Counted from the stretch's first letter, positions 12,830-18,445 are shown. The stretch: 64,000 nucleotides of DNA from Terriglobia bacterium (GCA_963666975.2 CAXVYR010000004.1:1376001-1440000); one strand, 5' to 3'. A program made the numbers and translations. Notes: generated from the sequence alone by a model not told the origin.

Positions 12830-13480
12830 ATGACGGTGCCCAACCCGACGCCGATCTATCGCCTCATCCATGTAGACAGTCTCCACATCTGTCTCAGGCG
12901 TAGTGGATTGCATGCACCGAATCATACGTCTGATGACGGATTAGTTTACAAAACGATCCATAATGTAGATATTCAGGCAGCGCGTCGGGTCACGTATATA
13001 CCATGTGGACCGCAGGGCGTTATCCATGATTATGTTTCTTTCTACTTTGGATACCTCTCCCCCATGCTTCTTCAGCTTAAAACGGAACGCGTGCCTGGCT
13101 ACAACGAAGGTCAGGAGCCTTTGATTTATCTGATTTCCACTGCGCAAGCGGTCCGTGACGCAGAGGTAAACTTCGTGTTCTCGGACGGACACGGCATCGC
13201 GGCCTTCACGGATTGGTATGACGACTTGGCGGATCTCGATAAAGTGGACTGGGACATGGTTTATCAACGATACTGGCCGGACACCGTGGACGACATGGAC
13301 CGCAAGCGCCGCAAGCAAGCTGAGTTCCTGGTGTACAGGTTCTGTGACTGGCGGGTGATCCATGAAATTGGAGTCTTGAATGATAGGATGAGGAGAGTCG
13401 TCGAAGATATCATGAGCCAGTTTTCAAGCGATTTACAACGGGTGGTCCGCGTAAAACCAGATTGGTATTATTATTCATAA
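12830..13480 (+). CDS. darT: DarT DNA ADP-ribosyltransferase toxin (DUF4433)
   Basis: IYRLIH, HDYVSFYF..LSPML, FSDGH, RKQAEFLV with catalytic Glu; upstream of a macrodomain gene. Confidence 0.92.
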   Translation: MTVPNPTPIYRLIHVDSLHICLRRSGLHAPNHTSDDGLVYKTIHNVDIQAARRVTYIPCGPQGVIHDYVSFYFGYLSPMLLQLKTERVPGYNEGQEPLIYLISTAQAVRDAEVNFVFSDGHGIAAFTDWYDDLADLDKVDWDMVYQRYWPDTVDDMDRKRRKQAEFLVYRFCDWRVIHEIGVLNDRMRRVVEDIMSQFSSDLQRVVRVKPDWYYYS

Positions 13481-13493
13481 GCGGAGATACTCC

Positions 13494-14537
13494 ATGATCA
13501 CAATTACGAAGGGCAACATCATCGAGGGCGATGCCGAAGCTTTGGTCAACACGGTTAATTGTGTGGGTTACATGGGAAAGGGGATTGCCTTGCAGTTCAA
13601 AAAGGCCTTTCCTGAGAATTTCAAAGCTTACGAGAAAGCCTGCCGAGGGAAAGAAGTCCAGCCGGGGAAAATGTTTGTTTTCGATACGAGTTCTTTGGTA
13701 AATCCGAGATATCTCATTAATTTCCCCACAAAACGCCATTGGCGAGGGAAATCGCGGGCAGAGGAAATAGAAGCCGGACTCAGAGCTCTGATTCAGGAAA
13801 TCCGAAAGCGAAACATCCGGTCAATTGCTGTGCCGCCTTTGGGATGTGGGCTTGGTGGATTGGAGTGGAATATTGTTCGTCCGATGATTGAAAGGGCTTT
13901 TTCGGAATTGCCGGATATCCAGGTTTTGCTCTACGAGCCTGTTGGGGCTCCTGAACCCAAGAGGATGCCCGTGCGCACACAACAGCCGAAGATGACGGTT
14001 GCCCGAGCTCTGCTAGTGAAGCTCATGCAACGATACTCCGAATTGGACTATCGGCTAACGCTTCTTGAGATTCAAAAACTTGCTTATTTCCTCCAGGAAG
14101 CTGGAGAGCCTTTACGGCTGAAATTCGAGGCCGGCCATTACGGGCCATATGCACATAATCTCAACAAGGTGTTGGAAACCCTGGAGGGCCATTTCATCCG
14201 GGGCTATGGCGACAGTCAGGCGCCGGATGTCGAAATTGAATTACTTCCTGGAGCTGTGGAAGCGGCAGATTCATACCTTGAGAACCATCGGGATTCTCGG
14301 AAACGCTTGGAAAAAGTTGCTAACCTGATCGAAGGGTTTGAAACACCATACGGAATGGAACTTCTGGCTACTGTACATTGGGTTTCTTTTCATTTGGAAT
14401 TTCCTCCCAAGAATGTTGAGGATGCAGTCCAGGCAGTTCAACGGTGGAGTGAACGCAAGCAGCGTATGTTTCGTCCCGGCCACATCCGGGTTGCCTGGGA
14501 GCGGCTCGTTGATACGAATGAGAAATTAGCCGTCTAA
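13494..14537 (+). CDS. darG: DarG macrodomain antitoxin
   Basis: ALVNTVNCVGYMGKGIALQFK, INFPTKRHWR, PPLGCGLGGL, C-terminal LEIQKLAYFLQ and GMELLATVHW. Confidence 0.94.
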   Translation: MITITKGNIIEGDAEALVNTVNCVGYMGKGIALQFKKAFPENFKAYEKACRGKEVQPGKMFVFDTSSLVNPRYLINFPTKRHWRGKSRAEEIEAGLRALIQEIRKRNIRSIAVPPLGCGLGGLEWNIVRPMIERAFSELPDIQVLLYEPVGAPEPKRMPVRTQQPKMTVARALLVKLMQRYSELDYRLTLLEIQKLAYFLQEAGEPLRLKFEAGHYGPYAHNLNKVLETLEGHFIRGYGDSQAPDVEIELLPGAVEAADSYLENHRDSRKRLEKVANLIEGFETPYGMELLATVHWVSFHLEFPPKNVEDAVQAVQRWSERKQRMFRPGHIRVAWERLVDTNEKLAV

Positions 14538-14559: not shown

Positions 14560-15126
14560 TCATTTCGGTGAAAGCTGCTGGCGGAAGACCTCCAGCGCCG
14601 CCGGAACCGAGTCTGCCTGAAAGACCACTCCCTGGGATTTTGGGTCGGCGGTCTCGATCTGCTCCACCACCGGCCGCCAGAATTCTCCCAGGACAACCAG
14701 CGGCCTGCGGGGCAAAATGCGTTTGTGCATCATCTCCCAGGCAACCGCCAACTCCACCAGCGTTCCTGTCCCTCCTGGGCAGGCCACGTAGCCGTCGCCG
14801 ATCGCGATCAACCTCCGCAGCCGCTGCTCCCAGTTTTCAACCACAATTTCCTGCTGAACCCACCGGTTGGGTTTGCTGGAGAAGGAACTGGCCAGTACTC
14901 CGACCACGTGCCCTCCCGCTTCCGCCGCGCCGCGCGAGACGGCCTCCATCACGCCGCCATATCCGCCGCTGGCCACGGCGAACCCGGCTTGAGCCAGCGC
15001 TTCGCCCAATTGGCGGGCCAGCCGGTAGGGCTCACTCGATTCGGTGGAGCGAGAGCTTCCAAAGACGGTGATGATGGGGGAATCAGCGGAGGAGGAAAAA
15101 GCCGGCGAAGAAGGATGTGGAGACAC
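14560..15126 (-). CDS. LOG-family (Rossmann-fold) protein; probable GTG start at 15126
   Basis: ITVFGSSR, SGGYGGVMEAVSRGA, PGGTGTLVEL. Confidence 0.9.
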   Translation of the reverse strand: MSPHPSSPAFSSSADSPIITVFGSSRSTESSEPYRLARQLGEALAQAGFAVASGGYGGVMEAVSRGAAEAGGHVVGVLASSFSSKPNRWVQQEIVVENWEQRLRRLIAIGDGYVACPGGTGTLVELAVAWEMMHKRILPRRPLVVLGEFWRPVVEQIETADPKSQGVVFQADSVPAALEVFRQQLSPK

Positions 15127-15142
15127 GTTGAGGGAGGAGACG

Positions 15143-15667
15143 CTACCGCATTCGCGGAGACCACTTCTGATCCACGATGCGTTTAATCTGCCGGTTGGAG
15201 ACCCCCGTGTTGTGCTGTCGTTGCGCCTCCAGCGCAATCTGGCGGCAGAGCAGTCAGGTGGCGCCGTGGTTGTCCGTGAAGCAGTCCAGATTATTGCGGT
15301 GCCCGGAAGTGCCATAGCAGCCGCAATAGCAAGGCATGTGTTCCAGGACCTCCGGGATGTCCTTGGCTACTTGATAGGACCGCGACACCTCGGGATCGGA
15401 GAAGCCCTTCGGGCTCAGGCTAACGGGGCGCGGGGTTTTCGGCCCAGCGGGCAACACCAAGCGATTCCTCAGCGTGGAATCGGTTGCGGAAGAGGCGGTC
15501 TGAGCCGGTTCGCTGGACGTTTGCCCGGCCCCGGAAGACTCCTGGCTGACGCCAAAATAGGTGAAGACCACTCCTGCCAGCACGATCCCGGCTACAGCTC
15601 CATACCAAACCTTGGCGTTTTTGCGCCGCGAGCTGGAGGAGGTTTGAGCCTTTTTGTGTTTCGACAT
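15143..15667 (-). CDS. PCYCGC/CYCxC-family membrane-anchored protein, probable selenoprotein (174 aa, Sec at TGA 15254-15256)
   Basis: N-terminal TM, PCYCGC, HRNNLDCF, then HGAT-TGA-LLC; the frame stays open 36 codons to TAG; hairpin at 15221-15237. Confidence 0.85.
15215..15253 (-). promoter_or_regulatory. Candidate bacterial SECIS element
   Basis: UUGCGC-UGGAG-GCGCAA stem-loop beginning 16 nt 3' of the UGA, with G at the 5' side of the loop. Confidence 0.65.
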
Positions 15668-15913
15668 CTGTAAGCAAAATCTAACATACTCGTGCCGTGC
15701 TTTCCAGCTATTTTAACAAATATTGCCTGGTCAAGCTGGCCGGCCAGGTTTGGATGAGGCTGCTTTATAGTTCCGCCCCCGGTGTAGCAGGAAATAGTTC
15801 CGTCGGGGAATCAACGGAAATAAGAAATTGCTGCTAACAGCCACAGCCTTTTCATTTACAATATAAGGTCCCATTTATTTCGCCGCATCTTTGTCGGCTC
15901 CTAGATCCTGACG

Positions 15914-18445
15914 ATGGCCTCGATCAACAAACATATTGAAAAAGCCGAACGCCTCCTCCAGAAGGGAAAAGTGGACGCGGCCCTTGCGGAGTTCCTGATC
16001 GCCTGGAAAGAGGAGCCGGACAACGACACCCTCGTCCAGACGGTGGCCGAACTCTACCATCAACAGAAGAAACTGAAGGAATGCCGGCAGTGCTACGGGT
16101 ATCTGTTCGACAAGTACGCGGAAAGGCAGGAGGGAGCAAGGGCGGTCGATATCTTCCAGAAGATGAAGAAGCTGGGGCCGGTCGAGCCCAAGCGCTCGCT
16201 GGCTTGCGCCCAGTTTCTGGAAAAAAAGAACCCCAAAGAAGCGACCGGGCTGTACCGCCAAGTCCTGGACACGGCGGGCGGACAGAGTCCAGAGATTGCC
16301 ATAAAATGCCTGCAAGGATTGTCGAAACTGCAACCGGACTCTTTAGAGGTCCAGCAGCAGACTGCCGCTTTGGCCTCGCAGACGGGCGACACGGCCCTGG
16401 CATCCTCCGCCTACCAGAAGGTAGCGGAGATGCTGAGCCAGCAAGGAAAGGATGCCGAGGCAGTAGAGGCTCTGGAGAAGGTCTACCGGCTGTCGGGGAA
16501 CAATCCGGCTGCGCAGGTTTCCCTCGCCCAGGCCTACGCGAAGACGGGAAAGTTTGAGTCCATACTGGAGCTTTTGGGAAATGCAGAGGAAAAATCCGAT
16601 GACCCCGAATTGCTAAGAGTGCTGGCAGATGCCTGCCGCGCCGGGAAACAATTGGAGCGAGCGGAGGCCATTTACTGGAAACTGCTGAAAAAATCCCCCG
16701 CAACGATTGATCCTTTGCTTGAGATCGCGCTGGGGTACATCCACCAGGACAACATTCCCCCGGCGCTCCGATTGCTGAATAGCCTCAAGAAAGAACTCAC
16801 AGCCCGCGGACGGCAAAACGACCTGGTCGCCTTCGCCGATAAGTTGGGCCGTATTTCACACACCAATATTTCTTTCCTGGAGTTCTTATGCGGTTTGCTG
16901 GAAGAACTCCACTACGACAGCCCGCTGTCCAATGCATTGAACGGCCTCTTTGATCTCTACTTCGCAGCCGGGCAGTTCCCGAAGGCTATCAACGTGCTGC
17001 ACCGGCTGATCGATTTGGATTCCTACGATCCGCAGTGCGCCGCTAAACTCGACCGGCTGAAAGGAAAGGCGGATCCGGGAGCCTGGAACGATCTTGCGGC
17101 TCGATTGGGAAAGAGTCCCTCCTCCGCCGGGAGTTCTGCCACAGGCTCGGCGTCCGCTACAGGAGTTGCCACCGGCCAAACCGGAGGCGAGGACGGAGGG
17201 AATGTGCTGGACGACTTGATCCTCCAGGCGGAAATCTACGTGCAATATAAACTGGACGCCAAGGCCCGGGAGCGTCTGGAGCGCATTGCCAAGCTGTTTC
17301 CGCGCGAGGAAGAAAAAAACGAGCGGCTGCGGAGACTGTTCACGCAGGCCCGCTTCGCCCCCAAATATCCGGACCTGCCCGCGAAAGCGGCTCCAGCGGA
17401 GCCGGCGCGCCCTGGGGTTGATTTGAGCCGTGTGTCGGAGGTCAACCGCAATCTTTTCCGGCAAGGTACGGTGAAGAGCGTGCTCTTTGCCGCAGTGAAT
17501 GATGTGGGCCGGCTCTGGCAGGCAGACCGCTGTGTGGTCGGCTTAGGGGCTCCTGGCCGCCCCCCCAGCATGGCGCTGGAATACATCTCGCCATCCATTG
17601 AGCCCTCCGATCCCAGATCGCTGGGGAAGCTGGTGATGGGGCTGCAGCAGATCATCAAAGACCAGAGCGACCCCTTGGCTGCCGAGAACGCAGCGGAGGC
17701 TCCGCAACTCGCCGAGTTGAAGAGCTTGCTCGCCGCCTCGCAGGTGAAATCTCTGGCGGCGATTCCGTTGCGGGACGCCGACCAACTCATCGGCATCATG
17801 ATTCTTGAGCAATGCAGCAAGCCCCGTTCCTGGGGAGCGAACGACTTGGCCGGGTTGGAAGCCATCGCCGGGCAGGTTGTTCTCGCTCTCTCCAACGCGC
17901 GCCTCCGCAGTCTGATGAAAACCCTGGCCGTTACCGATGAGCGTTCCGGCCTGCTCCATCGCGACTCCTACCTGACCTGCTTGTTGTCGGAAGCCGAACG
18001 GATGTCGGCGCAGAAGACGGCGCTGACGGCGGCCCTGCTCCAGTTTTCCGCAGAGGGCCAGTTGTCGCGCCAGCAACGGGAGCAAATTCTGGACCAATTC
18101 ATGAAGGAATGCGCGGGCACGCTGGCCTCTCAGCTCCGGCAAAGCGACATTGCCGTGCAATACAGCAAAGACACCCTGGCGTTGATTATGCCCGGCACCA
18201 ACGGGAAGAACGCTGTCTCGGCGATAGAAAAGCTGAGGAAGACACTGTCAACCATTCATTTGCCCAACGCCAATGGTCCCCCGCAGATGCTTGCCGGCAT
18301 TGGACAAGCCGTGGATGCGGCGGAGATGGACGGCGCCGATATTGTGACCGAGTTGATTAACCGGCTGGAATGCGCCTTGGAAGATGCGAAACAGTCGGGC
18401 GACAATGGCAGCAAACTTCTGGAGCCGCCAGGGATTTCAAGCTAA
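15914..18445 (+). CDS. TPR-repeat + GAF + degenerate GGDEF-domain protein
   Basis: N-terminal TPR-like helical repeats; GAF (ADRC...LAAIPL); TDERSGLLHR and RQSDIAVQYSKDT in place of RxGGDEF. Confidence 0.85.
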   Translation: MASINKHIEKAERLLQKGKVDAALAEFLIAWKEEPDNDTLVQTVAELYHQQKKLKECRQCYGYLFDKYAERQEGARAVDIFQKMKKLGPVEPKRSLACAQFLEKKNPKEATGLYRQVLDTAGGQSPEIAIKCLQGLSKLQPDSLEVQQQTAALASQTGDTALASSAYQKVAEMLSQQGKDAEAVEALEKVYRLSGNNPAAQVSLAQAYAKTGKFESILELLGNAEEKSDDPELLRVLADACRAGKQLERAEAIYWKLLKKSPATIDPLLEIALGYIHQDNIPPALRLLNSLKKELTARGRQNDLVAFADKLGRISHTNISFLEFLCGLLEELHYDSPLSNALNGLFDLYFAAGQFPKAINVLHRLIDLDSYDPQCAAKLDRLKGKADPGAWNDLAARLGKSPSSAGSSATGSASATGVATGQTGGEDGGNVLDDLILQAEIYVQYKLDAKARERLERIAKLFPREEEKNERLRRLFTQARFAPKYPDLPAKAAPAEPARPGVDLSRVSEVNRNLFRQGTVKSVLFAAVNDVGRLWQADRCVVGLGAPGRPPSMALEYISPSIEPSDPRSLGKLVMGLQQIIKDQSDPLAAENAAEAPQLAELKSLLAASQVKSLAAIPLRDADQLIGIMILEQCSKPRSWGANDLAGLEAIAGQVVLALSNARLRSLMKTLAVTDERSGLLHRDSYLTCLLSEAERMSAQKTALTAALLQFSAEGQLSRQQREQILDQFMKECAGTLASQLRQSDIAVQYSKDTLALIMPGTNGKNAVSAIEKLRKTLSTIHLPNANGPPQMLAGIGQAVDAAEMDGADIVTELINRLECALEDAKQSGDNGSKLLEPPGISS

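Follow-up and report, generated by a model that had tools for sequence, protein, structure and literature searches.

The closest described system is a family of small proteins listed in review tables as 'Hypothetical protein OS_HP4' or 'CYCXC family protein', with a UxxC motif and one selenocysteine (Sec) (PMC9312934, PMC13188914). Both reviews credit it to Zhang & Gladyshev 2007 (PMC1976440), the Olavius paper; the name 'OS_HP4' is absent from the main text of that paper and from that of the 2008 GOS paper, and the original description may sit in supplements. A lipoproteome survey calls the PCYCGC family one of unknown function (PMC13068155), and full-text literature searches for PCYCGC and CYCXC returned neither an experimental study nor a demonstration of selenium in any family member. 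Curation already records the family as a UxxC selenoprotein (NCBIfam NF041379, 'OS_HP4_CYCXC, CYCXC family (seleno)protein'), so what we report adds little that is new at this level: judged from its sequence, the apparent stop studied here is a selenocysteine codon in a small membrane-anchored CYCXC protein, a case already known in kind. An earlier reading of the DNA alone (hereafter the sequence-only reading) had proposed that this TGA encodes Sec; the family score, the Sec/Cys column, the SECIS element and the decoding machinery described below all favour that proposal. It had also mentioned a 'CYCXC (seleno)protein' family name, correctly, as this is the name of NF041379.

The window, by which we mean the whole 64,000-nucleotide stretch of a Terriglobia bacterium that was analysed (GCA_963666975.2, CAXVYR010000004.1:1376001-1440000), carries the gene on its minus strand. 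The ORF (15254..15667, minus strand) has 137 aa and terminates in NHGAT followed by TGA at 15254-15256. Past this codon the frame remains open for 36 more codons, LLCRQIALEAQRQHNTGVSNRQIKRIVDQKWSPRMR, up to a TAG at 15143-15145, giving a tail that begins L-L-C-R-Q-I-A-L-E-A-Q and closes with S-P-R-M-R. The sequence-only reading had placed the end of the ORF and the continuation at these same positions, and all of its coordinates hold. The full selenoprotein gene accordingly spans 15143..15667 (minus strand), from ATG 15667-15665 through the internal Sec codon to the true stop TAG 15145-15143, and has 174 aa; the in-frame TGA (15254..15256, minus strand) corresponds to U138, the first residue of U-L-L-C. 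We conclude that gene 15143-15667 very probably encodes a 174-residue CYCXC/PCYCGC member in which UGA 15254-15256 is decoded as selenocysteine.

Downstream on the same strand lies a LOG/SLOG-cluster-4 gene (14560..15126, minus strand; PF18306 89.6 bits, PF03641 64.1 bits), which stops at a TGA. Its start is provisional: the earliest in-frame GTG beyond the TAG is 15126-15124, 16 nt from the end of the CYCXC gene. Given this 16-nt distance, the CYCXC tail therefore occupies the gap between the two genes, as had been suggested from the sequence alone. The two genes are probably co-transcribed. The annotation of the CYCXC gene should accordingly run to 174 residues instead of 137 and show Sec as residue 138, and any LOG gene start upstream of 15143 should be discarded.

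The read-through protein scored 112.4 bits against NF041379, an equivalog model with a cut-off of 90 bits, over model positions 2-89 of 90 (protein residues 81-169), and 65.6 bits against Pfam PF13798 (PCYCGC; cut-off 25). The ORF ending at the TGA reached 75.5 bits, below the NF041379 cut-off, and matched model positions 2-57 only; the tail thus contributes 37 bits to the score. The CYCXC/PCYCGC domain (15161..15427, minus strand; residues 81-169) contains the C-Y-C-G-C motif (15317..15331, minus strand; residues 113-117) and the invariant residues C113, Y114, C115, C117, H123, C129, H134, U138 and C141. The protein carries both C113-Y-C-G-C117 and H134-G-A-T-U138-L-L-C141, all invariant in 29 sequences. 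In the alignment of these sequences (A2), the invariant set comprises Y98, A101, C113, Y114, C115, C117, H123, C129, H134, U/C138, C141 and I161. The source genome holds one CYCXC gene copy, and searching it with the A2 profile at E up to 10 gave no match besides the gene itself.

To what extent Sec and Cys share the UGA position can be read from the relatives. NF041379 was searched in 61 genomes, the source and 60 relatives, and matched in 31 of them, 27 above cut-off; the 33 match rows divide into 17 with one in-frame TGA and 16 without. At the codon aligned to the TGA, the 29 loci that could be classed out of 30 (own included) had TGA in 16 cases and TGC or TGT in 13; L049 fell outside the classing pattern and has Cys, by eye, at the aligned position. 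The tail is conserved in both forms (L-C-R-x-I-A..., Q-I-K). Two checks had been proposed along with the sequence-only reading, namely whether Cys or Sec aligns to the TGA and whether the 36-aa tail is conserved, and the answer to each is yes: homologues carry Cys at that column (TGC/TGT in 13/29), and the tail persists in Sec and Cys forms alike.

The family extends well beyond these genomes. In a sample of the phylum, 71 of 301 genomes matched, both with and without a TGA, in a tally that includes an unpublished genome (G083). A scan of genome records with a closer alignment (A4) turned up 338 relatives and retained 80 of them. Among the 36 of these that were classed, 33 had TGA and 3 had TGC, with L052-L064 partly the same assemblies as the first set of loci; their labels were Acidobacteria/Terriglobia, Methylomirabilota, Desulfobacterales, 'Deltaproteobacteria', Nitrospinaceae and Tectomicrobia. 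The 44 remaining kept records were one truncated locus (L077) and 43 from Bacillota, whose spacing lies outside the classing pattern. The four Bacillota records inspected encode lipoproteins and have Cys in the column of the TGA.

Sec and Cys forms have replaced each other repeatedly, even inside one genus. We inferred a quick maximum-likelihood tree from 58 distinct domain sequences (39 Sec and 19 Cys), omitting duplicate rows, L049 and L077, as well as 39 of the 43 loci from Bacillota. The tree calls for 8 switches between Sec and Cys, of which well-supported branches force at least 4. The Sec form L026 and the Cys form L035, from one genus, are sisters at 95% support. The selA gene was above cut-off in 52/61 relatives, including 14 of the 16 Sec-form genomes and 12 of the 14 Cys-form genomes; in the two Sec-form genomes where a selA search found none, completeness was 95% (G001) and 78% (G007). 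With selA present in 12/14 Cys-form genomes, the Cys forms therefore do not stem simply from loss of the machinery.

Bacterial SECIS elements obey a set of rules given in PMC13188914: an apical loop of 3-9 nt, an upper stem of 4-16 bp, a G in the first two loop positions with the pattern N-G-[G/U]-N-N and pairing outer N's, a UGA-to-loop distance of 16-37 nt, and a minimum free energy (MFE) of -7.5 kcal/mol or lower. The hairpin in the window (15220..15239, minus strand) has a 6-bp stem, UUGCGC 15237-15232 with GCGCAA 15226-15221, around the apical loop UGGAG 15231-15227, and an outer G-C pair 15239/15220 that a bulged A (15238) separates from this stem. Counted from the UGA, the 6-bp stem begins after 16 nt and the loop after 22 nt. 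The 26-nt hairpin stretch folds at -8.4 kcal/mol, a value equalled by 9 of 200 shuffles, and a second measurement gave -7.9 kcal/mol. These values agree with all of the rules: a 5-nt loop UGGAG (or GGA closed by U-G), a stem of 6-7 bp, a spacing of 22 nt and -7.9 to -8.4 kcal/mol. The hairpin UUGCGC-UGGAG-GCGCAA that the sequence-only reading saw 16 nt past the UGA is thus confirmed at 15237-15221, and its interpretation as a SECIS agrees both with the published bacterial constraints and with covariation across the Sec forms.

A hairpin of -7.5 kcal/mol or lower lies within the allowed window in 16/16 Sec forms and in 0/13 Cys forms, where the best reaches -3.7 kcal/mol and four lack any 4-bp stem; the rank test on this difference (p = 1.2e-6) is overstated because the genomes are kin. 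The most important control is the Cys form L037, which has the same I-A-L-E-A-Q in different codons and no such hairpin. An alignment of 15 Sec forms (A1) has 98.1% of its cells paired and compensatory changes in three pairs. Adding 21 more distinct Sec forms, drawn from other phyla, extended A1 to 36 rows (A5). In A5 the loop U-G-G-A is invariant, three pairs are altered on both sides, and the share of paired cells is 90.5%, whereas sliding the partners leaves at most 58.3%. Pair 28-40 is A-U in 18 rows, G-C in 15 and U-A in 3, and pair 27-41 is U-A in 31 and C-G in 5, neither of them unpaired in any row; the outer pair 24-43 is C-G in 16, G-C in 12, U-A in 1, U-G in 1 and unpaired in 6, and pair 26-42 is broken in 18/36 rows.

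In 19 of the 33 Sec forms from genome records the energy of the contiguous stem is just -4.5 to -5.2 kcal/mol, which falls short of the -7.5 threshold if bulged extensions are disregarded, and in the Sec form L045 a hairpin of another sequence stands at a similar distance, 11 nt. Part of the conservation is due to the protein, because the hairpin lies inside conserved coding sequence. The MFE fold of 73 nt around the UGA is no better than shuffles (z = +1.09; 173/200 shuffles fold as well), so that the local hairpin alone is informative and the wider fold is not. An Rfam scan of 15100-15320 gave four matches, all far below gathering scores and on the opposite strand, and no SECIS family. Taken as a set, the loci offer an unusually clean comparative view of a bacterial SECIS in minimal form: its UGGAN loop never varies, three of its pairs covary, and the element is lost in Cys forms even where the amino acids stay the same. 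As a side point, the SECIS stem would also determine which amino acids go together at the codons that contain pair 28-40: Ala with Gln or Arg, Ser with Arg, and Thr with Tyr.

The source genome (4.23 Mb, 98.9% complete) encodes the machinery for Sec insertion. Its tRNA-Sec (72.8 bits) was called SeC by ARAGORN, with anticodon tca (UCA); selA scored 563.5 bits, selB 371.8 bits and selD 349.5 bits, and all four genes are above their cut-offs. The selD gene lies about 15 kb before the window and itself has one in-frame TGA. The sequence-only reading had advised looking for selA, selB, selC and selD, and the complete set is there. Within the window, TGA closes 14 of the 37 open frames of at least 300 codons and also ends the neighbouring LOG gene; therefore there is no general reassignment of TGA. 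The codon itself is unchanged in further contigs: those of runs X3, X7 and X9, from three studies, cover 14900-15900 and differ only at 15021, 15859 and 15864, with no differences within 15143-15667, X3 and X7 possibly being the source itself. A TGC or TGT at this codon had been named as a finding against Sec, and the contigs from these three other studies all keep TGA. An RNA run (X15) yielded one 351-nt contig, 15264-15614, which ends 8 nt short of the UGA, may reflect DNA carry-over and so does not bear on read-through.

Two other accounts of the TGA must be set beside Sec decoding. The codon could be a genuine stop, with a 137-residue product and the 36 codons behind it a non-coding spacer or decayed remnant; translation table 11 does read TGA as stop, TGA is a common stop in the window, and even without its tail the ORF retains a family match of 75.5 bits. 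Yet truncation would cost the protein the invariant C141 and two predicted helices and drop its score under the curated cut-off, the tail is kept at protein level by Sec and Cys forms alike, from Acidobacteriota to Methylomirabilota, and the TGA recurs in 16 first-set and 33 genome-record loci, always with a hairpin (L052-L064 being partly repeats). We regard termination here as highly improbable. Equally remote is a TGA that is read through as another residue (Trp, Cys or Gly, by near-cognate or reassigned decoding) or that is an assembly error for TGC or TGT. Such an account draws on the Cys of the homologues, since the protein should function with Cys inserted, or if TGA stood in error for TGY, but it conflicts with the contigs of three further studies, which agree on TGA (two may be the source itself), with the TGAs that end other genes in the window and speak against a global reassignment, and with the dedicated tRNA-Sec, SelA, SelB and SelD; plain read-through also leaves the covarying SECIS unexplained. 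Under the preferred reading, Sec decoding, established SelB biology suggests that the hairpin with its UGGAG loop, 16 nt past the UGA, would act as a bacterial SECIS: SelB carrying Sec-tRNA(UCA) would bind the hairpin and bring Sec to the ribosome, and translation would proceed 36 codons past the UGA to the TAG.

The protein has a predicted N-terminal membrane anchor (15545..15601, minus strand; residues 23-41; Kyte-Doolittle mean 1.89 over 19 residues), followed by a low-complexity linker that leads to the domain of about 90 residues. Residues 1-19 contain seven K/R and no D/E, and the 20 residues after the anchor contain no K/R and two D/E; from this charge bias and the positive-inside rule we infer that the domain faces outward (N-in, C-out), most likely into the periplasm. 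An extracytoplasmic location is probable on these sequence features, and fits both the N-terminal anchor and the lipoprotein Cys forms of Bacillota. An AlphaFold2 model built on alignment A2 (pLDDT 93.0, pTM 0.84) is all-helical and places U138 directly ahead of a long helix, residues 139-153 (domain residues 63-77). Searching the PDB sequences with the family profile gave no matches at E up to 1. Foldseek against the PDB returned 97 matches at E up to 10, all with E of at least 1.5 and none at E up to 0.001; the highest TM-scores of that list belong to the CcmH periplasmic domains 2hl7 and 2kw0 (TMq 0.45, TMt 0.53-0.54, E 4.2-5.2). In the ESM Atlas, a natural Cys-form relative (L029) retrieved PF13798 clusters only.

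CcmH was chosen as a target for profile comparison after this fold list was known. PF03918 (CcmH) is present in 31/31 genomes searched, the source's own and 30 relatives, and 11 of 12 aligned CcmH proteins show C-Q/L/R-C-G/S-C and then a Cys 12 residues on, often within N-H-L-D-C. Comparing the family with the relatives' CcmH, hhalign gave a probability of 22-28% and P values of 6e-4 to 9e-4. The alignment pairs C-Y-C-G-C...N-N-L-D-C with C-Q-C-G-C...N-H-L-D-C, extends over the last two helices, and leaves H134...U138 as an insertion. The observed score of 24.1 lay above all 300 column shuffles (shuffle mean 11.4, SD 2.5, maximum 22.3), and for the part after the motif alone the score of 16.4 was reached by 1 of 200 shuffles. 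Searches of sequences with HMMs did not connect the families: PF03918 had no match to the window protein at E up to 1 and one match, at E = 0.13, among 29 family members, PF13798 matched 0/12 CcmH proteins, and the A2 profile recovered the CYCXC gene alone from the source genome at E up to 10. The colinear profile similarity to CcmH-type thiol-disulfide oxidoreductases appears to us a new lead, and a weak one.

If the lead is followed, U138-x-x-C141, positioned just before helix 139-153, would form a redox-active selenylsulfide, and U138/C141 could cooperate with the invariant C-Y-C-G-C, C129 and H123/H134 in thiol-disulfide exchange of the CcmH kind. On this basis we infer a role as thiol/selenol-disulfide oxidoreductase in the manner of CcmH, a call that we hold tentatively and a little short of even. 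The evolutionary version, in which CYCXC/PCYCGC is a divergent CcmH-type relative that kept the C-x-C-G-C...N-x-L-D-C core and gained a second centre, H-x-x-x-U-x-x-C, on an inserted segment, seems to us doubtful. Were it true, the family would constitute a branch of extracytoplasmic reductive protein maturation that depends on Sec and has gone unrecognised, with cytochrome c or some comparable protein as its client; its members occur in Acidobacteriota, Methylomirabilota, Nitrospinota and Thermodesulfobacteriota-like lineages and, as Cys forms, in Bacillota. In either version the weak CcmH link provides a concrete hypothesis on the function of a widespread extracytoplasmic Cys/His-rich domain.

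Sec decoding would stand equally well if the Cys/Sec/His cluster were a metal site (Cu(I), Hg, Zn or similar) in an extracytoplasmic metal-binding or chaperone protein, with Sec strengthening the binding of soft metals. Eight invariant potential ligands are available (C113, C115, C117, H123, C129, H134, U138 and C141), and this set, six Cys/Sec plus two His, would suit a metal site and a redox centre equally well; the protein has a C-x-C-x-C run, and such runs are typical of metal-thiolate sites. The predicted UxxC selenoproteins in review tables include several homologues of metal-handling proteins, namely a cation ATPase, a CobW-like protein and a putative mercuric reductase (PMC9312934, PMC13188914), and PMC13068155 reports a Bacillota PCYCGC lipoprotein beside an Fe3+ binding protein. 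Against this, no metal-transport or resistance gene recurs among 113 flank ORFs at 29 loci or among 82 flank ORFs at 42 Bacillota loci, no solved metal-binding protein is similar by sequence (none at E up to 1) or by fold, and the sole similarity found above shuffles is to a redox protein, CcmH. We consider a metal site a real possibility, if not a probable one.

Gene neighbourhoods give no further indication of function. The 113 flank ORFs of the 29 loci contain no recurrent partner, the top families being T2SSE (4), Ysc84 (4), MshEN (4), DAP epimerase (3) and LOG (3), in a scan by longest ORF that misses some true genes in G+C-rich DNA. By tblastn, at 29 other relatives' loci, the LOG gene lies downstream in 6/29 and the TPR-GGDEF gene upstream in 1/29. 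Among the 82 flank ORFs of the 42 Bacillota loci an ABC-2 permease occurs in 20, which is synteny rather than independent evidence because all are close Lysinibacillus-type kin. No partner gene recurs across lineages in the flanks of the 29 relatives' and 42 Bacillota loci.

Compared with the curated family NF041379/OS_HP4, the window protein is a plain member with no distinguishing feature: it scores above the equivalog cut-off over the whole model, has C-Y-C-x-C, carries Sec at the U of UxxC, and has homologues in Cys form. Its SECIS differs from the bacterial consensus in a very short stem (6-7 bp) and in having no long lower helix from the UGA, whereas in E. coli fdhF a long lower helix begins at the UGA. 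In other respects it resembles the consensus (bSECISearch model, as given in PMC13188914), being a hairpin in coding sequence just 3' of the UGA, with an N-G-G-N-N loop, a 22-nt spacing and an energy that reaches the threshold.

The Bacillota PF13798 proteins (Lysinibacillus, Sporosarcina, Bacillus and others) have P-C-Y-C-G-C, N-L-x-C, H-G-x-x-C-x-x-C and a helical tail in common with the window protein, and are extracytoplasmic, as is probable for the window protein, according to the loci inspected here and PMC13068155. They differ in having Cys for Sec (4 inspected of 43 loci), in a lipobox lipoprotein anchor where the window protein has an N-terminal membrane helix, and in an insertion of about 10 residues ahead of H-G.

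Compared with CcmH/NrfF/CycL (PF03918; 2hl7, 2kw0), the anchor is N-terminal in the window protein and C-terminal in CcmH, and the segment H134...U138-x-x-C141 is an insertion relative to CcmH, its UxxC lying in a stretch of 9 residues absent from CcmH. The canonical CcmH motif, L-R-C-x-x-C, is absent from the window protein. The apparent likeness is that each has a small helical domain with a Cys motif, anchored in the membrane and periplasmic, in the window protein by prediction: C-Q-C-G-C-x11-C and N-H-L-D-C of the relatives' CcmH are colinear with C-Y-C-G-C-x11-C and N-N-L-D-C of the window protein, and both share a G-x-S-x-x-x-I helix.

The hairpin that follows the in-frame TGA of the CYCXC family (seleno)protein gene has left its mark on the protein. 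SECIS base pair 28–40, numbered by columns of the alignment of 36 Sec forms (positions 15235 and 15223 of the window), occupies first codon positions, and the residues encoded there covary across the alignment: Ala occurs with Gln or Arg, Ser with Arg (encoded by AGA), and Thr with Tyr. We conclude that this amino-acid covariation is the visible trace of an RNA-structure constraint. A Sec form of the other subfamily, of the C-Y-C-Y-C type (L045:1552-1585, minus strand, in relative G027), carries a different hairpin, which starts 11 nt past the UGA and has a 7-bp stem (CAAGGAG/CUCCUUG), a GUU loop and a folding energy of −9.3 kcal/mol. It may represent an independent SECIS solution, or the locus itself may be an independent gain of Sec.

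TGA also serves as the true stop of the CYCXC gene in some relatives, among them L033:655-951 (genome G010) and the Cys form L037. At L033, the TGA stop lies directly after the tail, ahead of the frame of the LOG gene; UGA in one gene therefore encodes Sec and then, 36 codons on, termination.

In the window's own genome, selD (G000:C4:1360322-1361257; TIGR00476, 349.5 bits) is located approximately 15 kb ahead of the window start. Because this gene contains one in-frame TGA within the TIGR00476 match, SelD is probably itself a selenoprotein. We did not find selA in G001, a genome of the same genus that is 95% complete, although the Sec form and its SECIS are present there; the gene probably falls in a gap of the assembly.

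Upstream of the CYCXC gene, a divergently transcribed gene (15914-18445, plus strand) encodes a putative diguanylate cyclase of 843 residues with TPR-GAF-GGDEF architecture and is kept at this position only in the closest relative, L027. On the other side, a DarT gene (12830-13480, plus strand; PF14487, 187.7 bits) is paired with a macro-domain DarG-like gene (13494-14537, plus strand). The two form a DarTG toxin-antitoxin/anti-phage module, immediately downstream of the LOG gene and convergent to it.

CcmH (PF03918), the periplasmic thiol-disulfide oxidoreductase to which the CYCXC domain was weakly likened, usually carries two cysteines in an L-R-C-x-x-C motif. In contrast, 11 of the 12 CcmH proteins of the class aligned here (relatives' genes L133-L143 and the genome's own copy, G000:C3:632546-632902) have in its place a five-Cys pattern, C-x-C-x-C...C-N-H-x-x-C.
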